From the NCBI GenBank assembly GCA_030390025.1, contig CM059432.1, positions 24,492,001 to 24,556,000 on the forward strand: a stretch of DNA of 64,000 nucleotides. Direction: 5' to 3'. The DNA comes from Squalus acanthias. Taxonomy: Eukaryota. A program made the position numbers and the translations under genes. Shown here one piece after another: positions 8,213 through 56,800 of the stretch (position 1 is the stretch's first letter; each line of letters begins with the position of its first letter). The notes under the pieces are model-generated. The model saw only the letters and a program-made list of their open reading frames with translations. It was not told the DNA's origin and ran no database searches.

Positions 8213-9271
8213 GTAATTACACATTTTGTCAAGGATAAGGCTCTTTTCAAAAACCCTTTCATTATATAGCAGCGAATTATTAGATTTATTTCTTTCAAAC
8301 AACATCTGTGTTCTCTGAACAGTTAAATCTGTCATTGCTTCCTGCTGATTACCAGGTGAATTTGTTGGTTCCAGGATGCCACCAGTAAACAGAAGCGTTC
8401 TGTACTCTATGTGAGAATGCGTCTCTGTATAAATAGCACCATTATTTATGAGGAACCACATGTCAGCTTAAATTCTATTGCTTCATTGCAAGATAGCCAA
8501 GCTGATTAAATTCGAAATACACAGCTCTGCATGCTTTTCCTCCCTGCATCGTTACTGTGTTGAAATCAAGACTCAATGCAAGATGTCTTACTCTAATTAT
8601 CTTCTTTCCCAGAATCTCAAAACTTATTGGAGCTGATTTTTGTCCCACTACCGGAAGCAAGCTGAAAATTTCAAGAAAATGAAAAGTGGCGACTTACCGC
8701 TGAATCTCCGCCCATTCCAGTTTTCAGGCGGGCCTTTGTTAGGAACGCTAACAGGAAAGGTTTTATGAAAGAATCCATTTTATGTTCAGTTAATTACTAC
8801 TATGAGAGGAAACCAGCTCGAAGCTGTGTTCTCTGTGCCAAGAATTATTGCCCGAATTAACTCCCCTCGTCTGGCAGGAAACCAGGATGGGTGGGGGGGT
8901 GGGGGGAGGCGGTGGGGGGCGGTTTAGTTAAAATGGTCTGGGGAACTTATCCACTCCTTTCCCACCCCAAGCTGTCCCAAGCCGGTGGGGTCCTCTTTAA
9001 GTATGCAGATCGGGCTCTCATGATGTCATTGGAGCCCGATCTGCTATTTTAACCGGAGACCCGAGCAGGGGAGCACTGGTGGCTTTGAGCCCTCCCATTA
9101 AGGTGCTGCTGCAGGCCCACATCAGTCTATGCCAATTGGATTTCTCACCCTCCCAAATGGTGAGCTGCCTATAAGAAGCAAAATAAGAGCTGACAGCTCC
9201 CCTGTTCTATTAAATGAGTCGGGACCACGAAAACTGACTGGGCCTCCTGCCCTAAAATCCCACTTAGCTCA

Positions 9272-10205
9272 TTCAGAGCTACAAAAACAGTGGGAGCCCA
9301 AGAGAGAGCGAGAGTTCGGAGTTACAAAAAACAGTGGGAGCCCAGGAGAGAGCGAGAGTTCGGAGCTACTAAAACAGCGGGAGCCCAGGAGAGAGCGAGA
9401 GTTCGGAGTTACAAAAACAGCGGGAGCCCAGGAGAGAGCGAGAGTTCGGAGTTACAAAAACAGCGAGAGCCCAGGAGAGAGCGAGAGTTCGGAGCTACTA
9501 AAACAGCAAGAGCCCAGGAGAGCGAGAGTTCGGAGCTACTAAAACAGCGGGAGCCCAGGAGAGAGCGAGAGTTCGGAGCTACTAAAACAGCGGGAGCCCA
9601 GGAGAGAGCGAGAGTTCGGAGCTACTAAAACAGCGGGAGCCCAGGAGAGAGCGAGAGTTCGGAGCTACTAAAACAGCGGGAGCCCAGGAGAGAGCGAGAG
9701 TTCGGAGCTACAAAAACAGCGGGAGCCCAGGAGAGAGCGAGAGTTCGGAGCTACTAAAACAGAGGGAGCCCAGGAGAGCGAGAGTTCGGAGCTACTAAAA
9801 CAGCGGGAGCCCAGGAGAGAGCGAGAGTTCGGAGCTACTAAAACAGCGGGAGCCCAGGAGAGAGCGAGAGTTCGGAGCTACTAAAACAGCGGGAGCCCAG
9901 GAGAGAGCGAGAGTTCGGAGCTACTAAAACAGCAAGAGCCCAGGAGAGAGCGAGAGTTCGGAGCTACTAAAACAGCGGGAGCCCAGGAGAGAGCGAGAGT
10001 TTGGAGCTACATAAACAGCGGGAGCCCAGGAGAGAGCGAGAGTTTGGAGCTACTAAAACAGCGGGAGCCCAGGAGAGAGCGAGAGTTCGGAGCTACTAAA
10101 ACAGCGGGAGCCCAGGAGAGAGCGAGAGTTCGGAGCTACTAAAACAGCGGGAGCCCAGGAGAGAGCGAGAGTTCGGAGATACTAAAACAGCGGGAGCCCA
10201 GGAGA
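9272..10205 (+). repeat. 43-bp tandem repeat, ~22 copies (aaaacagcgggagcccaggagagagcgagagttcggagctact)
   Basis: Period measured from 9541 to 9584; a few 41-bp variants; no spacers. Confidence 0.97.
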
Positions 10206-10245
10206 ACGGGCACAACAGACCGATGAGTGTAAAGAAATCAAAGTG

Positions 10246-10285
10246 TGATGTCACCAGAAAGCAGGTAAGTGATTGGTTGGTGAGT
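10246..10285 (+). promoter_or_regulatory. CR1 5' UTR cassette: CRE-like TGATGTCA, GTAAGT donor, ATTGG (reverse CCAAT), GTGAGT donor
   Basis: Same ordered motifs at 16831-16870 (+) and 53275-53316 (-); rearranged version at 48712-48765 (-). Confidence 0.55.
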
Positions 10286-10396
10286 ATTTCTATATTTCTC
10301 GCTTTTTTCCAAACTTGGGCGTATAAATTTAAGTGCCTTGGTGTAGATTAAAAGATATACGTCTTCCAAATTTTAAAACTAAATGAATTAATTGAG

Positions 10397-11341
10397 ATGG
10401 GAGACCAGGCAATGTGTTGTTGTTGTTGCATGTGGGAGCTGGTGGACACCATTGAGGTCCAAGGCGACCAAATCTGCAGCAAATGTTGGCTGCTCGAGGA
10501 ACTTCGGCTCAGAGTTGATGAGCTGGAGTCCGAGATTCAGACACTGTGACACATTAGGGAGGGGGAGCGTTACCTGGACGCTAAGTTCCAGGAGGCAGTC
10601 ACACCCACTAGAGTAATTACTTCCGATGTGGCCCATGGTCAGGGACAGGATGGTGTGACTACAAGCGAGGCAGATATTGGGATCCAGGAGGTAGTGATGG
10701 AGGAGCCTCAGCCCTTGGCCTTGTCAAACAGGTACGAGATTCTTGCTCCCTGTATGGACGAGGGCAGGGACTGCAGGGAGGATGAGCAATCTGACCACAG
10801 CACCGTGGTACAGGGAGCCATTCAAGTGGGGGGAGTAAAAAGAAATGTTGTAGTGATAGGGGATAGTATAGTTAGGGGGATAGACACTGTTCTCTGCAGC
10901 CGAGAGCGTGAGTCCCGAAGGCTGTGTTGCCTGCCCGGTGCCAGGGTTAAGGACATCTCCTCTGGGCTGGAGAGAAACTTGGAGTGGGAGGGGAAGGATC
11001 CAGTTGTCATGGTCCAATGACATAGGTAGGACAAAGAAGAGGTTCTGCTGAGAGAGTATGAGCAGCTAGGGGCTAAATTAAAAAGCAGAACCTCAAAGGT
11101 AATAATCTCTGGATTACTACCTGAGCCACGAGCGAATTTGCATTGGGTAAATAAGATCACAGAAATGAACGAGTGGCTCAAAGACTGGTGTGGGAGAAAT
11201 GGGTTTCGATTTGTGGGGCACTGGCACCAGTACTGGGATAAGAGGGAGCTGTTCTGTTTGGACGGGCTTCACATGAACCATGCTGGGGCTAGAGTCCTGG
11301 CGAATCGAATAACTAGGGCAGTAGAGAGGGCTTTAAACTAA
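10397..11341 (+). pseudogene. CR1 ORF1 (Zn-finger/leucine zipper + SGNH esterase), disrupted
   Basis: CxxC..CxxC motifs, LRLRVDELE zipper, VVVIGDSIVRG and DGLHMN esterase motifs; stops and frameshift. Confidence 0.9.
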
Positions 11342-11519
11342 ATAGTGGTGGGGAGGATCCAGGTGAGCGGGAATTAAAAAAGTCAATGAGAAATGAGAAA
11401 GCAATAGAGCAGGATAGAGATGGGAGAAATAATAACCAGAGTGTGACAGGAAGGGACAGAATGTTTAAAAATAAGAGTGCAACAGAAAATGGAGCCAAAA
11501 CAAGGAGAATGGTAAAAAG

Positions 11520-14500
11520 ACAAAGTTAAAAGCTCTATATCTGAATGCACGCAGCATTCGTAACAAGATAGATAAGTTGTCAGCACAAATAGATACAAAT
11601 GGGTATGATCTGATCGCCATTACGTGGTTGCAAGGTGATCAGGGCTGGGAACTGAATATTCCAGGGTATTTGACAAATCGGAAGGATAGACAGAAAGGAA
11701 AGGGAGGTGGGGTGGCTTTGTTGGTAAAGTATAGGATCAGTACAGTGGTGAGAAGAGATATTGGCTCAGAAGATCAAGATGTAGAATCGGTTTTGGTGGA
11801 GATAAAAAATAATAAAGGGAAAAAGTCTCTGGTGGGCTTAGTCTACAGGCCGCTGAACATTAGCAATACTGTTGGACAGAGTATAAATCAGCAAATAATG
11901 GAGGCCTGTAAAAAGGTACGGTAATAATCATGGGTGATTTTAATCTCCATATTGATTGGACAAATCAAATTGGCCATGGTAGCCTTGAGGAGGAGTTCAT
12001 AGAGTGCATCCGGATGGTTTCCTAGAACAGTATGTAATGGAACCAATCAGGGAGCAGGCTATCTTGGATCTGGTACTATGTAGTGAGACAGAATTAATAA
12101 ATTACCTCATAGTCTAGGAAAGAGTGATCATAGCATGGTTGAATTTCAAATTCAGTTGGAGGGTGAGAAAGTTGTATCTCAAACCAGTGTCCTGATCTTA
12201 AACAAAGGCAATTACAGTGGCATGAGGTCAGAACTGGCTAAAGTGGACTGGAAAAATAAATTAAAGGGTAAGACAGTTGAAATGCAGTGGCGGACATTTA
12301 AGGAGATATTTCATAACTCTCAACAAAAATATATTCCAGTGAGAAAGAAAGATTTTAAGAGAAGGGAACACCATCCGTGGCTAACTACGGAAGTAAAGGA
12401 TGGTATCAAATTGAAAATGAAGACATACAATGTTGCCAAGATTGGTGGGAGACCAGAGGATTGGGAAATTTTTAAAAACCAGCAAAGGATGACTAAAAAA
12501 ATAATAAAGAGAGAGAAGATGAATTATGAGAGTAAACTGGCAAGAAACATTAAAACAGATAGTAAGAGCTTCTACAGGTATATAAAAAGGAAGAGGGTAG
12601 CTAAAGTAAACGTTGGTCCCTTAGAGGATGAGACTGGGGAATTAATAATGGGAACGGAGAAATGGCAGAGACTCTGAACAAATATTTTGTATCTGTCTTC
12701 ACGGTAGAAGACACTAACAACATCCCAATAATGGATAATCAAGGGGCCACAGGAAGTGGGGAACTAAAGACAATCACTATCACTAAGGAAATAGTACTTG
12801 GTAAAATAATGGGACTAAAAGTTGACAAGTCCCCTGGACCAGATGGCCTGCATCCCAGGGTCTTAAAGGAAGTGGCTGCAGAGATAGTGGATGCATTGGT
12901 TGCAATATATCAAAATTCCCTGGACTCTGGGAGGTCCCAGCGGATTGGAAAACCGCAAATGTAACACCCCTATTTAAGAAAGGAGGGAGACAGAAGGCAG
13001 GAAACTATAGACCAGTTAGCCTAGCATCTGTTGTTGGGAAAATGCTGGAGTCCTTCATTAAGGAAGCAGTAGCAGGGCATTTGGAAAATCATAATGCAGT
13101 CAAGCAGAGTCAGCATGGTTTTATGAAAGGGAAATCATGTTTAACAAACTTGCTGGAGTTCTTTGAGGAGGTAACGAGCAGGGTGGACCAAGGTGAACCA
13201 GTGGATGTGGTGTATTTAGATTTCCAGAAGGAATTCGATAAAGTGCCACATAAAAGGTTACTGCATAAGATAAGAGCTCACGGAATTGGGGGTAATATAA
13301 TAGCATGGATAGAGAATTGGCTAACTAACAGAAAGCAGAGAGTCGGGATAAATGGGTCATTTTCCGGTTGGCAAACGGTAACTAGTGGGGTGCCACAGGG
13401 ATCGGTGCTAGGGCCTCAACTATTTACAATTTACATTAATGACTTGGATGATGGGACCGAGTGTAATGTAGCCAAGTTTGCGGATGATACAAAGATGGGT
13501 GGGAAAGCAAGTTGTGCAGAGGACTCAAAGAACCTACAAAGGGATATAGACAGGTTAAGGCCCTGTGGGTGGCGGAGCGGGCCCAGGGGCCGAGTGGCCT
13601 GGTCCTGCTCCTACTTCTTGTGTTCTTTAGAGTTGAGGTTGGATCAGATCAGCCATGATCAGTTTGAATAGCGGAGCAGGCTCGAGGGGCCGATTGGTCT
13701 ACTCCTGCTCCTATTTCTTATGTTCTTATGTTCTTATGTTAAGTGAGTGGGCAAACATTTGGCAGATGGAGTATAATGTGGGAAAGTGCGAGGTTATCCA
13801 CTTTGGCAGGAAAAATAAAAAAGCAAATGATTATTTAAATGGAGAGAGATTACAAAATGCTACAGTTCAGAGGGACCTGGGGGTCCTTGTGCATGAAACA
13901 CAAAAAGTTACAATGCAAGTACAGCAAGTAATTAAAAAGGCAAATGGAATGTTGGCCTTTATTTCAAAGGGGTTGGAGTATAAAAGCAGGGAAGTCCTGC
14001 TACAACTGTACAGGGTATTGGTGAGATCACACCTTGAGTACTGCGTACAGTTTTGATCTCCTTATTTAAGGAAGGATATACTTGCACTGGAGGCAGTTCA
14101 GAGATGATTCACTAGGTTAATTCCAGAGATGAGGGGGTTGACTTATGAGGAAAGGTTGAGCAGGCTGGGCCTATACTCATTGGAATTTAGAAGAATGAGA
14201 GGTGATCTTATTGAAACATATAAGATACTGAGGGGACACGACAAGGTAAATGCAGAGAGGATGTTTCCCCTTGTGGGGAAATCTAGAACGCGGGGGCACA
14301 GTTTTAGAATAAAGGGTCGCCCTTTTAGAACTGAGATGAGGAGGAATTTCTTCTCTCAGAGGGTCGTAAATCTGTGGAATTCTCTGCCCCAGAGAGCTGT
14401 GGAGGCTGGGTCATTAAATACATTTAAGGTGGAGATAGACAAATTTTTGCAAGATAAGGGAGTGAAGGGTTATGGGGAGTGGGTGGGGAAGTGGCTTTGA
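11520..14500 (+). pseudogene. CR1 ORF2 (APE endonuclease + reverse transcriptase), disrupted
   Basis: [25 protein letters not shown] and FADD motifs spread over several frames. Confidence 0.92.
13560..13737 (+). mobile_element. Two tandem CR1 3'-tail-only insertions inside the RT domain
   Basis: Two 3' UTR hairpin+tail units; target duplication gttaag at 13554-13559 and 13738-13743. Confidence 0.8.
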
Positions 14501-15207
14501 GCCCAAGATCAGCCATGATCTTATTGAATGGCGGAGCAGGCTCGAGGGGCCAAGTGGCCTATTCCTGCTCCTATTTCTTATGTTCTAACATAGTTCTGCC
14601 CCGCCCCCTCACCCCCCATGCAAAAGACCAGAGAACGGAAGTTCCCTGCATTTACGCCAGTTCTGCACGGTTATAAATGATCGCCTAACATTTTAGACAC
14701 AGCAGGTCCCAAACTCTATTTCTGCTGTTATAAAGCATTTTTAAGCAATTTTCTTTGCACTGTATTTCCTATATCTTTGAATGCTTTATTATGGCCTTAG
14801 AATTTGTTGCAATAAAAAGAATAAAGCTTCCAAAATTGCATTTTCTTATACATGCTGTGCCTAATGTGCATTAATGATAGTTCGATGGCTTCATTCTTTA
14901 ATTTTCATACATAAAGAAGGAATATGTCATATATTTCAGGTTTTCCTCAGGCTCGATTGTTTACTCTGATCTCTGCTTGTTTTACACCATTTTTTTGCGT
15001 TCTGACAAATGTAAATGCGATTCTCAGGAAATATCAGCGTAAGTTGCTGTCGGCAATATCGGAGTAGAAACCAGCGTAAATTTCAGCATTTTGGTGTAAG
15101 TTGGATTGAGGTGCAGTCGATATGTCAAAATTAAGAATGCTTCTGTTGATGCCAACAATTTACAAATTTGTTGAATATGAAACTAAGCACCAATTATACA
15201 TGTAGAT

Positions 15208-15660
15208 GGAAAGAAAGACTTGCATTTATATAGCGCCTGTCACGACCACCGGACATCTCAAAGCGCTTTACAGCCAATGAAGTACTTTTGAAGTGGAGTC
15301 ACTGTTGTAATGTGGGAAATGCGGCAGCCAATTTGCGCACAGCAAGGTCCCACAAACAGCAATGTGATAATGACCAGACAATCTGATTTTTTGTTATGTT
15401 GATTGAGGGATAAATATTGGCCAGGACACCGGGGATAACTCCCCTGCTCTTCTTAGAAATAGTGCCATGGGATCTTTTACGTCCACCTGAGAGAGAGCAG
15501 CTGGGCCTCGGTTTAACGTCTCATCCGAAAGACGACACCTCTGACAGTGCAGCACTCCCTTAGCACTGCACTGGAGTGTCAGCCTAGATTTACATGCTCA
15601 AGTCCACAACCTTCTGACTCAGAGGCGAGTGTGCTACCCACTGAGCCACAGCTGACACTG
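15208..15660 (-). mobile_element. tRNA-derived DeuSINE-like SINE with L2-type tail
   Basis: Deu-like core (gcaggggagtt..cctggccaatatttatccctcaa), tRNA-like head, tail ggcgctatataaatgcaagtcttt. Confidence 0.75.
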
Positions 15661-16034
15661 CACTGGAAGGGAGGCTTTTGGCTCACCAATGATTTTTATT
15701 ATCCTATTTGAATTTAGATATCTCAGTGGTAACAGCCTTACTTACATGAAGCCTCATTTACCCACAGTGGGACAGTGAGACAGATGGAACCAAGTATGTT
15801 CCATTATTGCCTTCAGTACTGTCCTGTGATTAGCTGAGATCCTAGTAAAATCATCGAATATTACAGCACAGTAACAGACTATTTGGCACAGTAAGTCTTT
15901 GCTGGTGCTATTCTTCACATGAATCACCCAATCCAATCCCACTCTCCTGATTGCTTCCCATACCCTTTCATGATCCTCTTTTTAGGCAACTATCTAATTT
16001 ATTTTTAAAAGAATTTTTATGGACATAGCTTCGA

Positions 16035-16328
16035 CCGTTAAACCTTGGCCTGTCTGCCCTCTCGAGTGGATATAAAAAAAATGCCACTATTTCAAAGAAA
16101 GCAGGGGAGTTCTCTCCGGTATCCTGGCTAATATTTATCCCTCAACCAACATCTAAAAAACAGATTAACTGGTCACATATCTCATTGCTGTTTGTGGGAG
16201 CTTGCTGCATGCAAATTGATTGCCACCTTTCCTACATTACAACAATGACAACACTTCAAAAGTACTTCGTTGGCTGTGAAACGCTTTGCGACATCCTGAG
16301 GTCATGAAAGGCGCTATATAAATGCAAA
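16035..16328 (+). mobile_element. Partial DeuSINE-like SINE
   Basis: Homologous to 15208-15530 in the opposite orientation. Confidence 0.75.
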
Positions 16329-16330
16329 TC

Positions 16331-16795
16331 AGTACTTAAAACAGCGGGACCAGGACTTAATACAGCGGGAGATATAATCAGCAGCGTGGAGCTAATTGGA
16401 GATGGTATCAGCGGCAGCAGTACTTAATACAGCGGGAGACCAGGCAGCGCGGACCTAATTGGAGGTGGTATCAGTGGCGCCGGTACTTAAAACAGCGGGA
16501 GACAGGGCAGTGCGGACCTAATTGGAGGTGGTATCAGTGGCGCCGGTACTTAAAATAGCGGGAGACAGGGCAGTGCGGACCTAATTGGAGGCGGTATCAG
16601 TGGCGCCGGTACTTAAAACAGCGGGAGACCAGGCAGCGCGGACCTAATTGGAGGCAGTATCAGTGGCGCCGGTACTTAAAACAGCGGGAGACAGGGCAGC
16701 GCGGACCTAATTGGAGGTGGTATTAGTGGCAGCGGTACTTAAAACAGCGGGAGACAGGGCAGCACGGACCTAATTGGAGCTGGTATCAGCGGCGC
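16331..16795 (+). repeat. 63-bp tandem repeat, ~7 copies, in CR1 5' UTR
   Basis: Period measured from 16501 to 16564; unit tacttaaaacagcgggagacagggcagcgcggacctaattggaggtggtatcagtggcgccgg. Confidence 0.95.
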
Positions 16796-19029
16796 CCGAA
16801 CCTTCGATGATTTCCAAAAAAACAAGGAGCGATGTCACAGGACAGCCAGGTAGGTGATTGGTTGGTGAGTATTAAGGTTTTTTTTTCCTCTCTTTTCTCT
16901 CTAACCTGGGACAGTGCTTTAAACTAGGTGCAGGAAACTACAAAGTACTGTATTAAATTTATAGCTTAACTAGTTAAACTAATGAATATAATTGAACAAA
17001 GACTTTAACTAATTAAATAAATAAAATAAGGCTAGACTAAGATATGGCAGGGCAGGTTGTGTGTCTGGACTGCAGTATGTGGGAGTTTGTGGACAGCGAT
17101 ACTGTCCCGAGCGAACACGTCTGCAGGAGATGTCTCCATCTCGAATCTCTCCGGCTCAGAGTCATTGAGCTGGAGTGTGAGTTGGAGACACTCCGACACA
17201 TAAGGGAGGGGGAGGAATTTCTGGACAGTTTTATCGAGAATGCAGGCACACCCCAGAGGAAAGCACAGGTTCAGGAAGGGGAAGGTGTGACTGCTTGGGA
17301 GCTGGGTTGTGGGGATTTAGGAGAGGTTGAGAAGGAGGTCCTGCAGACACTGGTCCTGTCCAACAGGTATAAAGTACTCGCTACCTGTGAGGACAAGGAG
17401 AAAGACTGCAGGGAGGACAGCCACAATGCAGACCAAGGCACCGTGGCTCAGAAGGCTGTCCAATGGGGGGAAGAACAGAATAGAAATGTGGTAGTGATAG
17501 GGACTCTATAATTAGGGGGATAGATAGCATCCTCTGCAGCCAAGAATGAGAATCCTGAAGGGTAAAGGATATCTCACGGTGGCTGGAGAGGAACTTGGAA
17601 AGGTAGGGGGTAAATCCAGTTGTAGTGGTCCCTGTTGGAACAAACAACATTGGTAGGAACAGGGAGGAGGTCCTGCTGAAAGTGTATCAGGAGTTAGGCT
17701 CTAAATTAAAAAGCAGGACCTCAAGGGTAATAAATTCTGGATTATTGCCCGAGCCATGTGCAAATTGGCATAGAAGCAGACAGATCAGGAGAATTAACAC
17801 ATGGCTAAGGGGCTGGTGTGGGAAAGAGGAGTTCCTTTTCATGGGACACTGGCACCAGTTCTGGGACAGGAAGGAGCTGTACTGATTGGATGGGCTCCAC
17901 CTGAACCGGGATGGGACACGTGCCCTAGTGGAAAGGGTAAAAAGGGAGGTGGCAAAGGCTTTAAACTAGTAAGATGGAGGGAGGGATCTACAAGAAATGT
18001 AACCAGCCTAATTATAAACAAAACAGGAAAAGAAAACATAGGAAAGAATAAAGTAAGGGAGGACATTGATGGCAAGAGAATAAACAGAGTTATAGAACAG
18101 GAGTCTAAAAAGACGGTTAAATATAAAGCGAGAGGAAATCCTATTAAAAATTAGTTAAACTGTTTGTACAGCAATGCACACAGTGTTCGTAATAAAACAG
18201 GGGAGCTGCAGGCAATCATGCGTTGCGAGGAACCAGACATAGTGGGGATTACTGAGACATGGCTACAGAAAAATCAGACTGGGAATTAAACATTGCAGGG
18301 TATAACATATTTAGAAAAGATAGAGAGAGAGAAAGGGGAGGTGGAGTAGCTGTACCTTTTCGGGATAACATAATAGCAGTAGAAAAAAGTGACGCAGCTA
18401 TCAGCAAGAAAAAAATAGAATCCATATGGATAGAGATAAAAGATAATAAAGGATCAATTACACTAGTAGGCGTAGTCCTACAGACCACCTAATAGTGAAA
18501 GGGAGGTGGAGGAAGAAATATGCAGACAAATTAGGGAAATGAGTAAAAAGCATAGAATAATAATCATGGGGGATTTCAGTTACCCCGCTATTAATTGGAC
18601 AGAAGAGGTAGGTAAAGGGGATAAGGGAATGGAGTTCCTACAAGTGTACAGGACTCCTTTCTAACCCAATATGTAAAATGCCTAACAAGGGAGGATTCGC
18701 TATTGGATCTGATAATGGGGAATGAACCAGAGCAGATAAGAGAAGTAAAAGTAGTGGAACATCGAGGCAATAGTGACCATAATATAATACACTTTAAGAT
18801 GATAATTGATAAGAATATAAGTATGACGAAAACCAGGGTAATAGATTGGAGAAACACTGATTTTGAGAGGCTGAGAATAGAACTTGGGAAAATAAAATGG
18901 GCAACAATATTAGCAAACAACAATGTAGAACAGCAATGGGAAACATTTAAAACGGTGTTCAACAGAGTGCAGGAACAATATATTCTGCTAAAAGGAAAGA
19001 ACAAGCTAAACCCTACTGAGACTCCATGG

Positions 19030-19105: not shown

Positions 19106-20512
19106 AAAGAGGCATACATTAAGTACATAGACAGCAGGGGAGTGCATGATAAGGGAGAATATGAAAAGATTAGGAGAGAATTCAAAAACAATTAGGAAGG
19201 CAAAGAGGAACTATGAAATTAAATTATCAAGGAACATAAAACAAAATAATAAAATATTTTACAGCCACATCAATAAAAAAAGGAAGGTTGGGATGGGAAT
19301 CGGGCCATTAATAGATAGACAGGATAATACCACAGGTAATGATAGAGAGATGGCAGATATATCAAATAATTATTTTGCTTCAGTATTTACCAGGGAGATA
19401 GAACAGGTGGACATGACATTGGATGATGAGATTAGTAATGAGATAAGTGCATTTAAAATAAAAAGAGGATATATTAAATAAACTAATGAAACTCAAAGAG
19501 GATAAAACCCCTGGTGCAAATGGATTGCAGCCATGCATTTTAAAAGAATCGAGGGAAGATATAGCAGAGGCATTACTACACATATTTAATAATACGTTAG
19601 AAAAAGGTGCAGTTCCAGAGGATTGGCGGATAGCTAACATAATATCTATATATAAGAAGGGGGATAGAACATGTCCAGGGAATTATAGACCAGTTAGCTT
19701 AACATCAGTGGTAGGAAAAATAATGGAATCCCTACTAAAGGAGAAAATAGAAGAACATCTAGAAACCAAAAATATAATAATGAATAGTCAGCATGGATTT
19801 CAAAAGAGGAGGTCTTGCTTGACCAATCTCATTGAATTTTTTGAAGAGGTAACAAAGAGAGTAGACAATGATAATGCAGTAGATGTAATTTATCTAGATT
19901 TTTAAAAGGCCTTCGATAAGGTACCCCATAATAGACTGATGAACATGGTCAGAGAATGCGGAGTCAGGGGACAAGTAGCAGAATGGATTGCTGGCTGGCT
20001 TCAAGACAGAAAGCAGAGAGTGGGGGTAAAAGGTAGCTATTCACAGTGGCAGAAGGTGGGTAGTGGTGTTCCACAAGGATCAGTGCTGGGACCACTGTTA
20101 TTCATAATTTAGACTTTGGAATCAAAAACACAATTTCTAAATTTGCGGATGACACCAAATTGGGCAGGATAGTCAATACTGAGGAGGCCTGCAACAACTT
20201 ACAGGAGGACATTAATAAACTTGCAGAATGGTCATATAATTGGCAAATGAAGTTCAACACAGATAAATGTGAGGTATTACATTTTGGTAGGAAGAATAGG
20301 GAGGTCACTTATTACTTGGAGGGTGCGAGTCTACATGGGGTAGAGGAACAAAGGGATCTCAGAGTACAAATGCTCAAATCACTAAAAGTTGCGACACAGG
20401 TTAGCAAGGTCATAAAAAAAGCATGATGTGGAGATGCCGGCGTTGGACTGGGGTGGACAAAAATGAGAAGTCGCACAACACCAGGTTATAGTCCAACAGA
20501 TTTATTTAATTT

Positions 20513-20549
20513 TACAAGCTTTCGGAGCTTTTCGCTCCTTCCTCAGGTA
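20513..20549 (-). ncRNA. Minimal hammerhead ribozyme motif (copy on the inverted PLE arm)
   Basis: Reverse complement of 22438-22474. Confidence 0.7.
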
Positions 20550-20787
20550 GGTTAGCAGTGAGAGAATCTCCCAGAATTCACAATTTAAACACAGACAAAA
20601 TCTATTCAAATCTTTCCCTACATCAAAGACACACTAAGAGCACAGCCAAGACAATGAGATGTGTCCCAGGGGGTCCAACGTGTCAAACCATCTGCTGGCT
20701 GCATACCCTGTCAATTTGTGTTGGTTCTTGTGTTAGTCTTTTTTAAAAAAAAAACAAACACCTGGGAAGACCGGCCATGATGTCAAG

Positions 20788-21214
20788 TCACGTTCTGTAT
20801 CGTGACATGAACCCGATATCGCGATTGAGGCCATCCTCATGAGTGCGGAACTTGGCTATCAGTTTCTGCTCTATGATTTTGCGCTGTCGTGTATCCCGAA
20901 GGCCGCCTTGAAGAACGCTTACCCGCAGATCCGAGGCTGAATGCCCCTGGCTGCTGAAGTGTTCCCCGACTGGGAGGCAACCCTCCTGCCTGGCGATTGT
21001 TGCGCGGTGTCCGTTCATACGTTGTCTCAGTGTCTGCATGGTCTCGCCGATGTACCATGCTCTGGAGCATCCTTTACTGCAACGTATGAGGTAGACAACG
21101 TTGGCCGAGTCACATGAGTATGTACCGTGTACCTGGTGGGTAGTGTCCTCACGTGTGATGATGGTATCTGTGTCCATGATTTGGCATGTCTTGCAGAGGT
21201 TGCCGTGGCAGGGT
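20788..21214 (-). pseudogene. Inverted copy of the PLE GIY-YIG coding end
   Basis: 129-aa minus ORF identical to the C-terminus of the 356-aa ORF except one residue (KII vs KTI). Confidence 0.92.
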
Positions 21215-21218
21215 CGGT

Positions 21219-22197
21219 TTCCTCAGAATCGGTTTCATTCTTGGACACACGAATCTCCATCAAAGACGGACGCCTCAGCACTTCACTCTACCGCAAGCCC
21301 ACGGACAACCTCACGATGCTCCACTTCTCCAGCTTCCACCCTAACCACGTTAAAGAAGCCATCCCCTATGGACAAGCCCTGCGAATACACAGGATCTGCT
21401 CAGACGAGGAGGAACACGATGGACACCTACGGACACTGAAAGATGCCCTCGCAAGAACGGGATATGACGCTCGACTCGTCGATCGACAGTTCCAACGGGC
21501 CACAGCGAAAAACCGCATAGACCTCCTCAGAAGACGAACACGGGACACAACCAACAGAGTACCCTACGTCGTCCAGTACTTCCCCGGAGCGGAAAAACTA
21601 CGCCATGTTCTTCGCAGCCTTCAACATGTCATCGATGACGACGAACACCTTGCTAAGGCCATCCCCACGCCTCCACTACTCGCCTTCAAGCAGCCGCCTA
21701 ACCTCAAAAGTACCATCGTTCGCAGCAGATTACCCATCTTTCAGGAGAACAGCAACCACGACACCACACAACCCTGCCACGGCAACCTCTGCAAGACATG
21801 CCAAATCATGGACACAGATACCATCATCACACGTGAGGACACTACCCACCAGGTACACGGTACATACTCATGTGACTCGGCCAACGTTGTCTACCTCATA
21901 CGTTGCAGTAAAGGATGCTCCAGAGCATGGTACATCGGCGAGACCATGCAGACACTGAGACAACGTATGAACGGACACCGCGCAACAATCGCCAGGCAGG
22001 AGGGTTGCCTCCCAGTCGGGGAACACTTCAGCAGCCAGGGGCATTCAGCCTCGGATCTGCGGGTAAGCGTTCTCCAAGGCGGCCTTCGGGATACACGACA
22101 GCGCAAAACCATAGAGCAGAAACTGATAGCCAAGTTCCGCACTCATGAGGATGGCCTCAATCGCGATATCGGGTTCATGTCACGATACAGAACGTGA
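21219..22197 (+). pseudogene. PLE ORF C-terminal part: RT thumb, Cys linker, GIY-YIG endonuclease (open, but lacks the RT catalytic core)
   Basis: FLDTRISIKDGRLSTSLYRKPTD..FHPNHVKEAIPYGQALRIHRICS; PCHGNLCKTC; VVYLIRC..WYIGET..LRQRMNGH..EQKLIAKF..GLN. Confidence 0.92.
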
Positions 22198-22437
22198 CTT
22201 GACATCATGGCCGGTCTTCCCAGGTGTTTGTTGTTTTTTTTTTAAAAAGACTAACACAAGAACCAACACAAATTGACAGGATATGCAGCCAGCAGGTGGT
22301 TTGACACGTTGGACCCCCTGGGACACATCTCATTGTCTTGGCTGTGCTCTTAGTGTGTCTTTGATGTAGGGAAAGATTTGAATAGATTTTGTCTGTGTTT
22401 AAATTGTGAATTCTGGGAGATTCTCTCACTGCTAACC

Positions 22438-22474
22438 TACCTGAGGAAGGAGCGAAAAGCTCCGAAAGCTTGTA
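22438..22474 (+). ncRNA. Minimal hammerhead ribozyme motif in PLE pLTR
   Basis: tac CTGAGGA a GGAGC gaaaa GCTCC GAAA gc TT gta: catalytic core, 5-bp stem II, 3-bp stem I, palindromic AAGCTT in place of stem III. Confidence 0.7.
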
Positions 22475-22716
22475 AAATTAAATAAATCTGTTGGACTATA
22501 ACCTGGTGTTGTGCGACTTCTCATAAAAAAAGCAAACCAAGCACTAGGGTTTATTTCTAGAGGTATGGAATTGAAAAGTAGGGAAGTTATGCTAAACCAG
22601 TATCGAACCTTGGTTAGACCACACTTAGAGTACTGCGTACAGTTCTGGTCGCCATATTATAAAAAGGATATAGAGGCACTGGAGAGGGTGCAGAGAAGAT
22701 TTACAAGGATGATACC

Positions 22717-23960
22717 ATTCTACCCACCCTCTGCACAAAGAATTGTTTCAAACTTCCATTTAACTCTTTTCGTGATTGTTGTGCCAGCCAGCAAAAACAA
22801 TTGTTCACTATTTACCTTATCAAAACCCTTCACAATCCTGAAGATCTCTAGCATCTCAGCTCAATGAAAAGAGCCCTAATTTCTCACTTCTCTCTCTTCA
22901 TATCATTATCCCTCCTCCCTAGTGAATTTACCCTCCAACTTTTCCATTGCTTTCTATAATGGAGTAACCAAAACTGTACACAATACTCGAATGCAATCTA
23001 ACTACAGGAAACTCTTTCGTATCCGGCACCGACGGGACCGGGATGGTGCCGATTGATTAAAAATTCCGGATAACGGAGAGGTATATCTACCGAGGCTATT
23101 TTTAACAAACAAAAATAAAAACATCAAGAAATGTGCAGTATAATTGGGTACTCCCCTACAGAATGTTGTGTTAAATGGATGGTGGAAGATGCTTGATTAA
23201 GTACAGTAATGCCAGTTGAGGGTAATCCATAACTCTTTAATTACTTAACAGTAAAACAAAACTTATAAACGACTGTATACTGTAGTTTTCGGAGTATGAA
23301 TTCTGCCGGTTATTAGAGAATTCCGGATATTTAGGTGCCGTTTAAACGAGAGTTTCCTGTAGCATCTTACACAAGTTCAACATTATCGCCTTGCTTTTGT
23401 ATTCTATGCTTCTCGATACAAAGTCATAGATTCTGTTTGCCGTTTTTATGGCCTTATCTACTTGCACTGCCACCTTTAATGCCCTGTGTATCTACATACT
23501 GAGATCCCTTAGCTCCTCTACTCCATTGAAAATCTTACCAATTAAAGTTTACTTCCTTTCCATAATGCATTTCTTTTTTTTTTCTAAATTGTGTATCTGG
23601 CCATCTTGCTAGCCTTCTATAGTCTTTTGCAAGTCCAAATCGCTTGCATGTAAATAAGAGTGGCCCCAACACATGACCCTGTGGAACATCACTTACCACT
23701 TCTTTTCAGGCCACGAAGCTTCCTTTTACCCTTATCCTTTGCTTTACAGCCTCTATCTCCCATATAGCCACACTTCCTTTAGCTCTATGTACCATTACTT
23801 TTATCATAAATATTTTAAGTGCTACCTTACCAAATGTTTTTTTCAAAATCCACATAAACCACACTCAATGCATTTACTTAATTTTTTTTCCCATTATTCC
23901 TTCAAATATTACTATAAGGTTGATCAAACACAATCTGCCTTTGAGAAAATGGTGCGGACT
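22717..23960 (-). mobile_element. Old, heavily decayed CR1 fragments
   Basis: Residual similarity to CR1 RT (e.g. HHFLKGRLCLINLIVIFEG, aaactgtacacaatactc). Confidence 0.6.
23005..23359. mobile_element. Tigger/pogo-type MITE
   Basis: TIRs caggaaactct / agagtttcctg flanked by TA on both sides; non-coding. Confidence 0.85.
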
Positions 23961-24035
23961 GGCCCTGATAAACTCAGTTTTTCCCAAGATCCCCAGCAAT
24001 GTGAGCCATTCCCACTGATGCCATGGCCTAGATTT

Positions 24036-35075: not shown

Positions 35076-36093
35076 GTTTGCAATGACAACACAAATTCAC
35101 AATCTTCACCTGTGCAGATCTTCAAATCAGGAAAAACACCACAGCAATGGAGTCAGGTTGGGTGGGGTCTGATCATGGGGTGTAGGTTGGTCACCTGGGG
35201 TTGATTCTGGCCAAAGGGACTTGTGTGCTGTGCAGAGTTACTGCGGACCCAGGAGCAGCGGTGCGGTGACTGTGAAGACCTGGCCTGGAGCAGGTAGGAT
35301 TGGTGTTTTTATTCTTGCGATTTTTGTCACTGTACAGTAGTTGGATTTCATTTTTTGACTTTTCACTGGGCCCGGCTGTCAGCGGAAACGGTTTGACAGG
35401 GTGTCCGGATTCCGGTACATTTTACGGATTCCGGACGACCCTGCCACCAATCGTCCTGGAGTCCGGATTCTGGAACATTCCGGATTCCGGAACTCCGGAT
35501 TCCGGAACTCCGGATTTTGGACGCTCAACCTGTACCATCATAAGAGCTTTAAAAAATAGAAAAATAAAATTTTATCACTCACTTATACTTTAAAAACCCT
35601 GTCCAATAAGGTAAGTTTATATTTAGCCCCGTTAAAAGATATACTTAAAAAAAAATTACATTTGTTTAAAATATTTAATTAAATGCCATTTTAATTAATA
35701 TTATATATGTAATTTATTTATTTATTTATTTCATGTGTTTGTGTATTTTTTAAGTCATCCCCATTTATACTTATGACAGTTCCGTGCGTATGGAATCCCC
35801 ATAAGTATAAATGGGGATTCCCTTCTTTCATTGGTTGGGCTGGTCCACGTGATCCCAGGGGCGCTTGCGAACCGCATGTGCCCCTGGGATACGTGGGCCT
35901 CTACATATTTCTACCAGGAGAGGCAAAGGATCGCAAGCCTCCGTAATTCCCGGGCTACCAGGTAAATGCATCGATTTTTTGATGATCGGAGGCCTCCGAT
36001 CGCAAATTCAGGCCCATTATTTTTTTAACTCTCCTTAGATGATAATTTGTGATGTCAAATACATACATACACAATTAAAATTTTGTTCAAGAA

Positions 36094-48252: not shown

Positions 48253-49271
48253 AACGGAAAATCTGTCAGAGAGGGAGATGGACCCAGGGGACTCCTACAC
48301 TACCTTCCTAGTTCTTTTACTCTGTCTGGTGGTCACCCATTCCCTGTCTGCCTGTGCACTCTTTACCTGCGGTGTGACCACTTCGTTAAACGTGCTATCC
48401 ACGGAGATCTCAGCTTCGTGGATGCTCCACAGTGACTCCAGCTCCGAAACGCGGATTTCGAGTAGCTGCAGCTGGAGACACTTCCTGCACATGTGTTCGC
48501 CCTGGACACTGAAAGTGTCCCTGACTTCCAACATAGCACAGGAGAAGCACTCCACGCTGCCGAGCTGCCCTGCCATGTCCTAACCTTAACTTACTCCCTT
48601 TACTTCCTTTAAATTAAAGAATATTAAATACACTAGGGACCTTACTTCACTTTAAACACTACTTATTCTAAACTAGAGACCTTACTTTTACTTCAACGAC
48701 TGGACTGTAGAAATACTCACCAGGTCCTACTTACCAATCAGCTCCTTTCCTGGTTGTGAAGTCACTTTAGCGGTTTTGCAGTTGTTGTTTGACTACTCCC
48801 GCTCTCTGACTCTTTCCCAACTCGCAGCACTCCTCTGCAGCGCTCCTTTATGGCCGCTCCGCCTTCTCTCAGGTCCCGCTGCCACTCCCACACAGGTCCG
48901 CCTCCTCTGAATAGATTCCAGGATTTTCCTGATGACTGATGTCAGGCTAACTCGCCTATAGTTCCTGTTTTTCTCTCTCCCTCCTTTATTGAATAGCTGG
49001 GTTACATTTGCTACCTTCCAATCCGCTGGGACCATTCTAGAATCTAGGGATTTTGGAAGATCACAATCAATGCATCCACTATCTCCGCAGCCACCTCGTT
49101 TAGAACCCTAGAATGTAGGCCGTTAGCTCCAGGAAATTGTCCCCTTAGTTACTCAAGTATTTTTTCTCTACTGATATGAATTACTTTACATTCCTCACTC
49201 TTATTAGTCCCTTGGTTCTCCATTATTTTTCGTATGCTTTTTGTGTCTTCTGCTGTGAAGACAGATACAAC

Positions 49272-50588: not shown

Positions 50589-53500
50589 ATATGAACATAC
50601 GAATTAGGAGCAGGAGTTGGCCACTTGGCCCTTCGAGCCTGCTCCGCCATTCAATAAAATCATGGCTGATCCGATTACTCCACATTCCTGCCTACCCCCG
50701 ATAACTTTTCAGCCCCTTGCTTACCAAGAATCTAACTACCCCTGCCTTAAAAATATTTAAAGACTGCTTCCACCGCCCTCTGAGGAAGAGAGTTCCAAAG
50801 ACTCACGACCCTCTGTGAGAAAAAAATTCTCCTCATCTCTGTCTTAAATGGGTGAACCCTTATTTTTAAACAGTAACCCCTAGTTCTAGATTCTCCCACA
50901 AGAGGAAACATCCTCTCCACATCCACCCGGTCCAGACCCCTCAGGATCTTATATGTTTCCATCAAGTCACCTCTTACTCTTCTAAACTCCAGCGGATACA
51001 AGCCTAGCCTGTCCAACCTTTCCTCATAAGACAACCAGCCCATTCCAGGTATTAGTCTAGTAAACCTTCTCTGAACTGCTTCCAATGCATTTACAGATTT
51101 TCTTAAATAAGGAAACCATTACTGTACAGAGTACTCCAGATGTGGTCTCACCAATGCCCTGTATAACTGAAGCATAACCTCCCTACTTTTGTATTCAATT
51201 CCCCTCGCAATAAACAATAACATTCTATTAGCTTTCCTAATTACTTGCTGTACCTGCATAGTAACCTTTTGCGATTCATGCACTAGGACACCCAGATCCC
51301 TCTGCATCTCAGAGCTCTGCAATTTCTCACCATTTAGATAATATGCTTCTTTTTTATTCTTCCTGCCAAAATGGACAACTTCACATTTTCCCACATTATA
51401 CTCCATTTGCCAGATCTTTGCCCACTCACTTAACTTATCTATATCCCTTCGTAGCTTCCTTATGTCCTCTTCACAATTTACTTTCTTACCTATCTTTATG
51501 TCATCAGCAAATTTAGCAATCATACCTTCGGTCCCTTCATCCAAGTCATTTATATAAATTGTAAAAAGTTGAGGCCCCAGCACACCACTCGTTACATCTT
51601 GCCAATCAGAAAATGACCCATTTATGCCTACTCTCTGTTTCCTGTTAGCTAGCCAATCTTCTATCCATGCCAATATGTTACCCCCTACACCATGAGCTTT
51701 TATTTTCTGCAATAACCTTTGATGTGGCACCTTATCAAATGCCTTCTGGAAATCTAAGTACGGTACATCCACCGGTTCCCCTTTATCCACAGCACATGTT
51801 ACTTCCTCAAAGCACTCCAATAAATTGGTTAAACATGATTTCCCTTGCACAAAACCATGTTGACTCTGCCTGATTACTTTGAAGTTTTCTAAGTGCCCTG
51901 CTATCACGTCTTTAATAATAGCTTCTAACATCTATTTGCGCTATCAGTTCATCTGTTTTGTTTCAAATGCTACGTGCATTCAGATGCAGAGCCTTTAGTT
52001 TTGTCCTTTTATTATTTTTGTAACCTCTAGCCTTATCTGTTGATTTACTCTTAGATTTGTACTCTCTATCCCTTCCTGTCACAGTCTGTTTATCATTTCC
52101 CATATTAATACCTTTCTCGATTGCCTTGTCTCTAATCTTTGAATTACCACATCTTCCCAAATTTGATCCCATGCCCCCAATATTTCGTTTAAAGCCCTCT
52201 CTACCGCCCTAGTTATACGACTCGCCAGAACACTGGTCCCAGCATGGTTCAGGTGAAGACCGTCGCAACGATACAGATCCCACTTTCCCCAGTACTGGTG
52301 CCAGTGCCCCAGGAATTGAAACCCATTTCTCTCACACCAGTCTTTGCGCCACGTGTTCATCTCTCTAATTTTATTTACCCTATGCCAATTTGCTCATGGC
52401 TCAGTTAATAATGCAGACATTATTACCCTTGAGGTTCTGCTTTTTAATTTAGCCCCTAGCTGCTCATAGTCTCTCAGCAGAGCTTCTTTCCTAGTTCTAC
52501 CTATGTCGTTGGTACCTACATGGACCATGACCACTGGCTCCTCCCTCTTCCACTGCAAGTTCCTCTCCAGCCCAGAGCAGATGTCCCGAACCCTGGCAGA
52601 CAACACAGCTGTCTGGACTCTCACTCTTGGCCGCAGAGAACTGTATCTATCCCCCTGACTATGCTGTCCCCAATTACCACTACATTCCTATTAACTCCTC
52701 CCGCTTGAATGGCTTCCTGTACCTCGGTGCCATGGTCAGTTTGCTCATCCACCCTGCAGCCACCGCTTTCATCCATAAAGGCCGCAAGAACCTCAAACCT
52801 GTTGGACAATTGCAAAGGCTGAGGCTCCTCCACCTCCTGGGTTCCCATACATGCCTCACTCGCAGTCACATCCTCCTGTCCCTGACCACTGACCAAATCA
52901 GAAGACCCTATCCTAAGGGGTGTGACTGCCTCCTGGAATAAAGTGTCCAGGTAACATTCCCCCTCCCTGATGCATCGCAGTGTCCGCAGCTCGGCCTCCA
53001 GCTCATCAACTCTGAGCCGAAGCTCCTCAAGCCGCAGACACTTACCGCAGACGTGTTCGTCCTGGATCACACTGGCGTCCAGGAGCTCCCACATACTGCA
53101 GTCGCAACACATCACCTGCCCTGCCATCTTTATTGAGTCTTAATTTATTTATTTTTATTAAATAAACCCTACTACACCTAATAAGATTTATTACTGCTAG
53201 TAAACTAGTACTAATGAAACCTTGCAATTACTAACACATTTCCTGGGCTTTAAAAGATAAGGGAAGTGAGCAAAATACTCACCAACCAATCACTTATCCT
53301 TTTCCCTGTGATGTCACCTTTTATTGTTCTCCAAATGCGGTTGGGGGGTGTCACAGAACCGAACTCCCGCTGGTTCTCTGTCCCCTCTTGTTCAGCTTTT
53401 TAACTCCTGCTCTCCTGGAAGCTGACAAAGATAGAAAAAGAAAGGAACACCTCCCTCCCCGATCCCGCTCTCACCAAACTCGCAGCTTTACACTCTGTTC

Positions 53501-53825
53501 TGAGCTGCACTCTGTGACAAACTGCACTCTAGCCTCCCTTATTTATACTGCTGAGATTTAAATAAGTGAGCTCTCTGGCAGTTACAGAACCAGATTAGAC
53601 CAGTTAATTAATTAATTACACTCACCTGCTCTCCAGCACAGATCTTGCTTAGCCCTGCCCAAGCCTGGAAGAAACTTAAAACTTGAAACAGTAAATTTAA
53701 ATTTAAGTTAAATGCTAATTGCAAGCACACAAGACTAGATTTTATAAAAATGAGATTAACCATTAAGATTCACTCCCTCACTCACCAAACTCGCAGCTTT
53801 ACACTCTGTTCCGAGCTGCACTTTG
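50589..53825 (-). mobile_element. CR1 (CR1-C) with intact 5' end and a large internal ORF2 deletion
   Basis: ORF1 from 53127 (MAGQVMCCDCSMW..GDSIVRG); ORF2 start LHLNARSI joined directly to RT at ~51931. Confidence 0.88.
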
Positions 53826-56800
53826 TTTTGATCACTCTTCCCCAGAGGATCCTTTACTATGAGATTACTAATTAACCCTATCTCATTACACAATACAAGA
53901 TCTAAAATAGTCTGTTCCCTGGTTGGTTCCATGACATATTGTTCTAGGAAACTGTCTCAAAATGTATTCCATGAACTCGTCCTCCAGACTACCTTTACCA
54001 AGGGGTAAATGGGTAAGAATATTCCACCTTCCCAGCGGAAGCAAGAAAGAAGGCTGCCTATGGCTGTAGAGCAATGAGACCCAGAACTCATGGATAAATG
54101 CCTGAAAAAGATGTTTGAGAAACATCGTAACTACGTGTAGGCTTCGAAGTGAATCTTCTAGGATATGCCGCAACTGCGAGTTCACAGTTCTCATTTGCGA
54201 CAACATCATTTTACTCCATTGCAGGCATCAATGGCAGCATCATCAGAATCTGCAGCAGATCTGCAATGGCCAGGGACTAGTTGTGCCTCTACCACAATTT
54301 TGATGGTAATAGGGAAGGGAATAGACTGAACCCTGAATAGCAGTTTTCAGACCACAATGGCCACGATGCATGCTGATGTGTCTCAAGGCTATCAGGATCT
54401 GATAGCTGCCATTCTTCCAATCAGTGAAGACACAGATCCAGGGCCCAGTGCAATGGTGATGGGTTTAGTCAATTCGTTTGATTCTGCCATTACTCAGGAT
54501 TACATGCCAAGCCTCCAGCCTTCCTGCTCAGTGCAGCACATCAGTGGAACATGGGAGGCTACACCAGATTGCTCAGTAACAAGCTCCAGAGATGAAGCCA
54601 GAAGTAACTTCCTGCCAAGAGTAAGCCACCATAAGAGAAGGGCCACCTCAGTCCCATGACCCTTTTGTAGAGCATGAGCAGGTAACCACCTCTCTTGGTA
54701 CTGACCCTCAAGTTGCACCTAGGAGAAACACTAGAAGGGTTATCGAAAGCCATGTGAAGGTATCCAGGGAAGCATGGTGTTAGAAAAGAATAGGTTGGCT
54801 TGTGTACACTTTGGACTTCATTGTAAGAAAATAGAGTGCTCAGCGACATTGCTCTTTGTTATTTATGGAGAATGCATTGATTTGGTGCTGACTTATTCAT
54901 TCAGGTGATGATTATTGGCATACTCAAGTTGGAACAAAAAGGACTGATGTGTTGTTATGTTGTATGATTGGTCATGGATTGAGAGAATGTCAATGGCCCG
55001 GAATTTGCAGTTGTAATGATGGCAAAACTGTCAGCGCTGGCCATCATTGCTGTGTGAAACTGACAGCAAACTCTGGTGTCTGCACATGTGCAGTTAATCA
55101 TGGAAATACAGAAGTTGCTGTCAGTATACCCTGCTCCTCCACAGGGTGTGGTGTTGCAGTTCTCACAGATGGAATTCATTAGAAATCACTGAATTGACAT
55201 GAACTTAACTTTTTACGCACTATTCTCGCTGTAAAAACCCTTGAAAAACTTAAGCCTTGTTGAATTATGTGTAACTGAGTGTTTATCGCCGGACTAAGTC
55301 ACAATTACTGCTGAACAACCTCTCTGGCCCTGAAAAAATAGTTTTATATTGTGGAATGTCATTTTCTCCATTCTGTGATAAAAAAAATTCCATATAGTTT
55401 TAAAATAATAAAAATTAGTTGATTATTTTATTTTTTAAGTTTGCTTATGATATTTCAGCTTGCACCTTAATCTCATGTGTATGTCCCAATCCTTATTTTG
55501 CTTTCTGTGAAAGTATTAAAAAGTGAATGATAAAACCTGCTGAAAAATGGAAATTGATGCCGCAGAGCCCGCTAAATGTTTGTGGGCAACTTTCTTCGAG
55601 GTCAGCGACAAGCACTGTCCCTTCGCTGCTGACCGTAAGATCCGGGCTATTATCTATGTGCGCAGGAGGTAAGTGGGCTTTGTCACCCAGAAGCCACCCG
55701 TTGACCTATTTTTCTTCCCTCAAGAGGTCAGGCACCGGGCCAAATTTCGAAGGATGTATGCATCATGACAACTTGGAGTAAGTCGGAGGTTGGGACAAAC
55801 AATGGCTTAATGGCGGGAAACTGCCAGAAATGGCTTCTACCCGATTTTCCCATTACAAAAATGTAGTTGCTCCAATTGTACATTGCAAATACGATGAAAA
55901 TGAAAAGTATATTCATCCCCCACATTTTCAATTTATCGCATTTACCCCCCCTCCCCCTACCATGAGTAAATACATAGAAATAACCCTACATCATATAGAA
56001 CAATTATACTATTGTATAGAGTCATGTAGCTCAGGAAGGGAGATTGCTGGAATTGTTCTAACTGGTCTGAGAAATATCTGGAGCATATTTTAATTCTTAC
56101 CAGAATATTATAGAATTGTCTAAAAGTAAAATAAATAACTGAACAGCTTTTTACAAATTGAGCCAATAGTAAATAGTAGCTAAAAAAACATATTGTAAGT
56201 CACGGTTCATCACCATGTGCTTCTGCGAGCTTTAATAAATTACAAAGGTGTTGTGTCGTGCCCTTCATGCAGTGTGTAAGATGCACATATAGATCGAAGC
56301 TTCCTACTCATCTCAGTGAGCACACAGCACAGATTTATGCGATTGGATCTGAGCTAATTATTTTTTATTTTTTCAAATCAAGTCATAGCCCATCTTCAAG
56401 ATTGTAAAAATTATCTGCTTATTTGGCAGCCGATGCTTTAAGAAGATTGACTACTTGACGACCACTTGCTATTGCTGTGTTATGTTTAAAACCAATTATC
56501 ATTTGTCTCCATGAACGCTCACAGGCAGCATAACTAAAATTTGCCAAATCGTTCTTCTGTCATGTTGTTACATATTTCCTATCCATCTGCCAGCCAACAT
56601 TTAGCTGTTATTTAGTTGGAAGGAAGTGCTGTTGCTGCTACCAGGTGTTGGTTTTATTTATTTGTGCACAAAAAAGAAGTGCATTAATTGGATGAGGAGT
56701 GTTAGATCACATGTCAAAGTGAAATTATTAGACTATTTTACGACTCCCAGTCACTCAGTTGGCAAGCATAATGCTCAGTGAAGAACTAAACTATTCAGAC

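Follow-up and report, generated by a model that had tools for sequence, protein, structure and literature searches.

CR1 retrotransposons, a type to which the LINE HER1 belongs, are the main LINEs of sharks, reptiles and birds. For any LINE the promoter has to lie within its own transcript, and the element has to survive losing its 5' end. To our knowledge long monomer arrays have been described for L1, most of all in the mouse, and the transcription start of CR1 has been little studied. If a monomer design were present in CR1 too, this would represent a repeated solution among LINEs. This question is raised by a tandem array that heads a CR1 element, here called copy A, in the window, i.e. 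the whole stretch of 64,000 nucleotides of Squalus acanthias DNA that we analysed (Table 1). An earlier note on this DNA had proposed that the array was either a monomer-type internal promoter or a variable tandem repeat that expanded after insertion.

Tandem Repeats Finder described the array with a period of 43, 95% matches and a score of 1670, which bears out the approximately 22 monomers read before from the letters. Cutting at a fixed anchor gave 21 whole units of 11 types, and nine of the 21 were identical, so that the homogeneity claimed for the array was confirmed. The 14-bp core TAAAACAGCGGGAG, or a variant of it with at most two mismatches, was present in every 43-bp unit of copy A. 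The array had CpG-island character, with a GC content of 56% and a CpG observed/expected ratio of 0.84 (0.92 in a second array, that of copy B); the ORFs had ratios of 0.32-0.38 and the window as a whole 0.39. No YY1, CCAAT, CRE or E-box motifs were found in the copy A unit by motif scan, E boxes were found in neither copy A nor copy B, and Rfam gave no matches across 8500-17200. A coding role of the array was ruled out by stops in all three forward frames and the absence of ATG from 9272-10205. A role in RNA structure was likewise rejected, four units folding no better than shuffled sequences (z 0.20).

Table 1. Positions in the window of copy A and of the leaders and boxes of copies B, C and D.
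Feature	Position	Strand	Basis or detail
Copy A leader, 21.8 tandem 43-bp units	9272..10205	+	Tandem Repeats Finder and unit alignment
Copy A head part-unit, opens TTCAGAG, putative 5' end of the insertion	9272..9293	+	One contig of another copy has the same phase and head variant
Copy A unique 5' UTR ("tether"), 191 bp, GC 35%	10206..10396	+	Box comparison, composition
Copy A box: GTGATGTCAC, GTAAGT, TGATTGGT (presumed reverse CCAAT), GGTGAGTA (presumed splice-donor-like)	10245..10286	+	
Copy A ORF1: Cys-rich N-terminus, heptad region, SGNH/GDSL esterase; broken; ends TTTAAAC and stop	10397..11341	+	
Copy A ORF2: APE endonuclease and reverse transcriptase; broken	11342..14500	+	Domain matches, alignment
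Later insertion in copy A ORF2: two CR1/SINE-type 3' tail pieces, TTAAG duplication	13560..13738	+	
Copy A 3' UTR hairpins and TTCTTATG octamer tail	14505..14586	+	Fold z -2.96, 1/200 shuffles as stable
Copy B leader: two 21-bp core repeats, then 6.6 x 63-bp units	16328..16796	+	Same 14-bp core, opens ATCAGTAC
Copy B conserved box	16829..16871	+	ORF1 next at 17044
Copy D: 140-bp leader, no array, and box	48714..48905	-	AGCGGGA twice, opens TTCAGAG; ORF1 from 48576
Copy C: 509-bp leader and box	53276..53826	-	53-bp block twice at 311-bp spacing (92%), AGCGGGA twice; ORF1 from 53127

The array forms the 5' end of a full-length CR1, as had been suggested, and is followed by the UTR, ORF1, ORF2 and a CR1-type 3' tail. 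Judged by its sequence, copy A is a full-length, decayed CR1-type LINE of the shark/ray type. Its ORF1 aligned over all 318 aa with intact ORF1s of sharks and rays, with 62% identity to P0003 and 63-67% to ray and shark relatives. The cysteine pattern of the N-terminus was visible in the alignment, and Lipase_GDSL_2 matched the copy A fragment below the curated cut-off (E 4.8e-6) and the intact relative P0003 above it. Kapitonov and Jurka are said to have described in 2003 a CR1 ORF1 type that combines a Cys-rich/heptad N-terminus with an esterase. ORF2 matched RVT_1 (E 1.7e-26), a fragment of it matched Exo_endo_phos below the cut-off (E 0.001), and it aligned along P0089, which has both endonuclease and reverse transcriptase (RT). 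Among the 120 matches listed for the RT were mostly RT proteins of birds and turtles, together with unnamed matches of 73-79% and one ray protein; none of them carries the label CR1, which we take to apply to this element.

The earlier note had described many stops and frameshifts in both reading frames. Damage was indeed present, yet the decay was moderate. ORF1 contained one nonsense codon and a short out-of-frame stretch, and ORF2 contained five frame changes, two stops in its 3' part, two more in an uncertain first piece and the insertion of ~180 bp. Two estimates placed copy A at about 1.2-2.1% divergence from family members, a loose range that depends on the source species of the public run X2 used for comparison. 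The best public run contained 0.57 of the 31-mers of copy A, corresponding to 1.8% divergence, and among the differences listed over 1,195 bp at least 14 had another letter at 90% or more of the depth and at least 25 at 70% or more.

This low divergence bears on how the array is to be read. Of the 65 CpG sites of the array 8 were lost, and of the 32 sites in 10206-11400 at least 4, about 12% each. The survival of CpGs in copy A is expected, because its divergence is so low, and special protection of the array CpGs was unsupported, as loss was about the same in array and body. That most of the approximately three CpGs per unit are kept stands (57 of 65 sites, with all three in 15 of the 21 whole units), whereas the contrast drawn with a decayed body does not. 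The clustering of variants at the left end of the array proved weak, with 14 of 25 differences in the first seven of 21 units (permutation p 0.044) and five of six units variant at the array start versus 12 of 21 overall (p 0.15).

Signs of turnover lay in the sharing of variants. Of 20 substitutions in whole units 15 were shared between units, among them a change of two bases present in both unit 5 and unit 15, where the null mean was 2.8 and none of 20,000 simulations reached this number. Some of these shared variants were probably inherited. Singletons numbered four in 903 bp of the copy A array, where a divergence of 1.2-2.1% predicts 11-19 (P 0.054 if divergence is 1.0% and 0.0003 if it is 1.8%); the copy B array had ten in 378 bp. 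The scarcity of private variants in copy A suggests homogenisation or growth after insertion, depending on the divergence estimate.

ORF1 sequence is present in five CR1 copies of the window, of which four (A to D) retain the ORF1 start and the fifth is 5'-truncated. Short-unit arrays were found in copies A and B and in neither C nor D, and the leaders upstream differed among all four. What the four shared was a box 152-213 bp before the ORF1 start with the consensus GTGA(C/T)NTCAC (GCGATGTCAC in B), TGATTGGT and GGTGAGTA. We take these motifs to be CRE-like, CCAAT and splice-donor-like, respectively. GTGATGTCAC in A and GTGACATCAC in C are the two deamination products of the palindrome GTGACGTCAC (CRE-like), and position 10249 reads C in other copies at 78% of the depth in run X2 and 99% in run X15. 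Polymerase II promoters commonly pair a reverse CCAAT box with a CRE-like palindrome some 20 bases further upstream. The box pattern had no loci in metagenome contigs or prokaryote genomes. A spliced 5' UTR intron beginning at the donor-like sites was also considered; no GT..AG joint started there among the 15 of 21 joints listed, in contigs, which cannot exclude one.

The array of copy B is independent evidence that such repeats belong to the element. Its first base is the exact breakpoint of a SINE-like repeat, as seen against another copy of that SINE, and the array is therefore the 5' end of the insertion. Its 63-bp unit and the 43-bp unit of copy A have the exact 14-mer core in common. 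With up to two mismatches the core occurred 30 times in the window, 22 times in the array of A and eight times in that of B, where 0.44 were expected. Thus all 30 core matches in the window lay in two CR1 5' arrays, and the unit was not found mostly away from CR1 5' ends, an outcome that had been named as one that would speak against an element-borne leader. The local alignment score between the two units was 30, a score reached by none of 3000 shuffles (maximum 28), and no match longer than 10 bases was found elsewhere in the window. A shorter motif, AGCGGGA, had 28 of its 30 window matches inside the four leaders; its double occurrence in C and in D was reached by 0 and 2 of 2000 shuffles, respectively. 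In copies A and B the core follows the 5' end at a distance of 8-11 bases, B opening eight bases before it, and the 5' boundary reads TCAG or CAG in A, B, D and one X15 contig and not in C, a pattern noticed post hoc. In viral contigs the core pattern gave eight single matches, which were taken as chance, and ORF1 alignment confirmed none of 362 metagenome candidates and none of 92 in viral contigs.

Copies A and B are distant relatives. Their identity over 154 RT residues was 59%, equal to that between A and a stork protein, whereas A, C and D were 71-76% identical to each other and grouped at 97% support in an RT tree (155 columns; seven copies from the window and five proteins from databases; without an L2 or L1 outgroup). 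That A and B share the core would call for strong constraint or, alternatively, for leaders having been exchanged between lineages. Arrays are evidently not needed by every lineage, because C and D, which are closer to A than B is, lack a short-unit array. At the level of sequence these comparisons establish an element-borne tandem repeat, a core common to far-apart CR1 lineages and a box common to four lineages. The shared core, the second array and the conserved box go beyond the earlier note.

We consider it fairly probable that the array is the CR1 subfamily's own 5' UTR monomer region, situated above a conserved tether that carries the box, with the core as a start-placing promoter element, and that it was turned over after insertion. 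From the position and conservation of these parts we infer a candidate two-part internal promoter. The box would bind general activators and so recruit them, and the core would help to fix the transcription start a few bases upstream, each unit offering a spare start site. Repeating a core-bearing stretch might thus provide spare starts, so that a copy shorn of its front units would still be transcribable, as in mouse L1. Different lineages may have amplified different stretches, of 43 and 63 bp, around one core. Once inserted, the array would have acted as a minisatellite, subject to unequal exchange, conversion and slippage; such turnover could account for its homogeneity and probably for part of its 22-unit length. 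The 14-base core and the box are two small candidates for how CR1 elements start transcription, and arrays that change length after insertion could provide the host genome with CpG islands of variable size.

A broader proposal is more tentative. CR1 lineages of sharks that have diverged as much as shark CR1s have from those of birds may have kept the 14-base core for positioning the start and independently built candidate monomeric promoters (units of 43, 63 and perhaps 311 bp) above a fixed box, each unit serving as a start. If true, this would be convergence on the design of mouse L1, with units a fifth the size and a number that changes after insertion.

Against a monomer promoter speaks the length of the unit, 43 bp being far below the approximately 200 bp of mouse monomers; moreover, the motifs recognisable as promoter-like sit in the single-copy box and not in the unit of copy A. 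It is possible, though we think it rather unlikely, that the box and one 5' core make up the working promoter and that the arrays are slippage-prone passengers whose extra units add nothing. Such an arrangement would fit the retention of the box in 4/4 copies and of arrays in only 2/4, the lack of any tested motif in the unit of A and the minisatellite-type turnover of the arrays. It would also fit copy D (45538-48576, minus strand), in which an internal deletion fuses the first third of ORF1 to ORF2 and the remaining ORF2 keeps 864 open codons, including the endonuclease and RT domains, behind a 140-bp leader without an array. It sits less well with two far-apart lineages each having amplified a stretch with the same core, or with the unit array of B also having ATTGG in seven places, and a start 960 bases above the box would be hard to explain if copy A inserted with a long array.

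Copies elsewhere bear on whether the array was already present in the source element. The stretch 10151-11400 was present in part in 20 of the 24 listed runs, from eight coded organisms and in shares of 0.12-0.57; no RNA runs were among the listed runs containing it. Of four runs examined, the contig runs X2 and X15 were informative, and the raw-read runs X21 and X22 gave eight reads, all in ORF1, and none, respectively. X15 is RNA by guess only and gives no evidence of expression. In X2, a public DNA run, 13 contigs crossed position 10206 reading G versus A in copy A (depth 1,614 of 1,721), with the differing letter up to 31 letters from the contig end. Other copies thus have the unit joined to the same UTR, so that the possible objection that other members of the subfamily lack it did not hold for the copies in this run.

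Two go-back joints in X2 (10186 to 10151 and 10192 to 10154) further represent variant units in tandem. Summed depth in X2, which is not equal to copy number, was 103,092 for the one-unit bin and 30,615, 16,299 and 32,078 for the subfamily-specific UTR bins; on a crude reading there are several units per element and no free satellite. Depth at the junction (1,721) amounted to about an eighth of that deeper in the UTR (11,000-15,000). Many copies that share this UTR may thus have a different leader, or contigs may break at this point. In X15 one contig led from the ORF1 of one element through a 20-letter head into the unit, with the same first base as copy A and the same head variant (CAGAG, then ACAAAAAC). 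It may therefore be from the source element that the variants at the left end were inherited. The unit phase of the 5' end rests on two copies of A's subfamily, namely copy A and this contig.

These data make it improbable that the source element had one or two units and that the 22-unit array is a variable tandem repeat grown at this locus only. With its four singletons the array has a uniformity beyond that predicted from the age of the body, as such local growth would have it; tandem variant units in the X2 contigs of other copies, the 3-6-fold excess of unit depth in X2 and the independent array of copy B all stand against it. Of the two readings offered before, the monomer leader holds as a structure, and the choice between them as strict alternatives does not, as the shared variants and the few singletons suggest later turnover of an inherited array. 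A free minisatellite family beside which a CR1 landed by chance, or an assembly artefact, is very improbable: no target-site duplication was found for copy A to fix its left boundary, as such an origin would allow, whereas the unit-to-UTR junction was found in other copies, unit depth was of the same order as that of the UTR and not orders higher, the array of B opens at a SINE break, the window had no match above 10 bases outside the two arrays, and the array has 11 distinct unit types.

Taken as the monomer region of its subfamily, the leader of copy A can be compared with known systems. By analogy of layout it resembles a monomeric L1 promoter, without belonging to that family. The L1 elements of mouse (A, Tf, Gf) and rat likewise have tandem CpG-rich units at the very 5' end and a tether of ~200 bp to ORF1 (available parts of PMC9022269 and PMC5381506). 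In the former source, the mouse L1 monomer measures ~200 bp and is followed by a tether; the mean in young subfamilies is 3-4 monomers, and more than 10 occur at 7 of 5,765 loci. In the mouse, starts cluster within the monomer and tethers are more conserved than monomers (PMC9022269); here, too, the tether with its box is more conserved between subfamilies than the units, and there are hints of phased starts. Mouse monomers had been called additive promoters in the earlier note; in the same portion of that source their effects are often synergistic, with a non-linear effect of the third monomer, and not simply additive. Other mammalian L1s carry two to three tandem motifs of 70-100 bp (PMC5381506, in part). 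Copy A differs from mouse L1 in belonging to the CR1 clade with an esterase ORF1, in its units of 43 bp (63 bp in copy B) versus ~200, in having 22 units versus a mean of 3-4 (PMC9022269), in the absence of YY1 motifs from its unit, unlike L1 Tf, and in that different unit lengths here share one short core.

Within CR1, short direct repeats in the 5' UTR have a precedent, which qualifies the earlier note's remark that it did not know 5' monomers as a standard CR1 feature. According to the accessible text of PMC2734521, the citing paper through which we compare, turtle CR1 (Kajikawa 1997) and a pufferfish CR1-like LINE (Poulter 1999) have a direct repeat of 32 bp in their promoter regions, the chicken CR1-B 5' UTR shows promoter activity, and CR1 subfamilies differ in their 5' UTR (Haas 2001, as cited there). 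The likeness is that a vertebrate CR1 has short direct repeats where its promoter lies or would lie; E boxes, an obvious feature of the turtle and pufferfish 5' UTRs, set these apart from copies A and B (PMC2734521). Neither long 5' monomer arrays in CR1 nor 5' ends of shark CR1s were found by title or start of abstract in the full-text literature, a scope with subscription journals and Repbase outside it. HER1 of sharks and rays (Ogiwara 1999, PMC3747384, in part) is alike by description only, copy A having shark/ray ORF1 relatives and a hairpin-plus-octamer tail. The 3' end of CR1 is described as a hairpin and an octamer microsatellite, with ATTCTRTG as the avian octamer (PMC8665684, available part); copy A has the same layout, with TTCTTATG in its place. 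Transposon-derived minisatellites also arise by tandem turnover of a piece of a retroelement, and the CR1 example in the part of a review available (PMC9659126) comes from the 3' UTR/ORF2, whereas the repeat of copy A is a 5' leader that is still attached.

Several further observations concern the CR1 copies of the window. The 3' end of ORF1 was TTTAAAC in all four copies examined, at 11332-11341 (plus strand), near 17960 (plus), and near 52190 and 45265 (both minus), with a stop directly after it in copies A and B. ORF2 of copy B contained an insertion of ~2.1 kb at 20410-22535, flanked by duplicated CATAAAAAAAGCA, and stopped abruptly where it adjoins a reverse-strand CR1 piece (22717-24002). 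Inside the insertion was an open frame of 359 codons without a Pfam match, whose C-terminus we take to be Penelope-like (GIY-YIG). At 40234-53956 (minus strand) same-strand CR1 pieces were nested head to tail. Copies C and D both start inside ORF2 of another CR1, and in one X15 contig the 5' end lies inside ORF1. This nested pile may reflect a preference for inserting into other CR1s.

In the leader of copy C (53463-53826, minus strand) a donor-like GGTGAG terminates each 53-bp block, and an acceptor-like TTTCTTCCAG and another GGTGAGT lie between the blocks. The repeated stretch may represent a 311-bp monomer, or else a leader cassette of its own. Immediately before copy A, 9005-9044 forms a 40-bp imperfect palindrome centred on TGATGTCA. 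Small tandem repeats were further found at 35462-35516 (15 bp x 3.5), 37937-38006 (a perfect 35-bp duplication) and 41358-41441 (a perfect 40-bp duplication).
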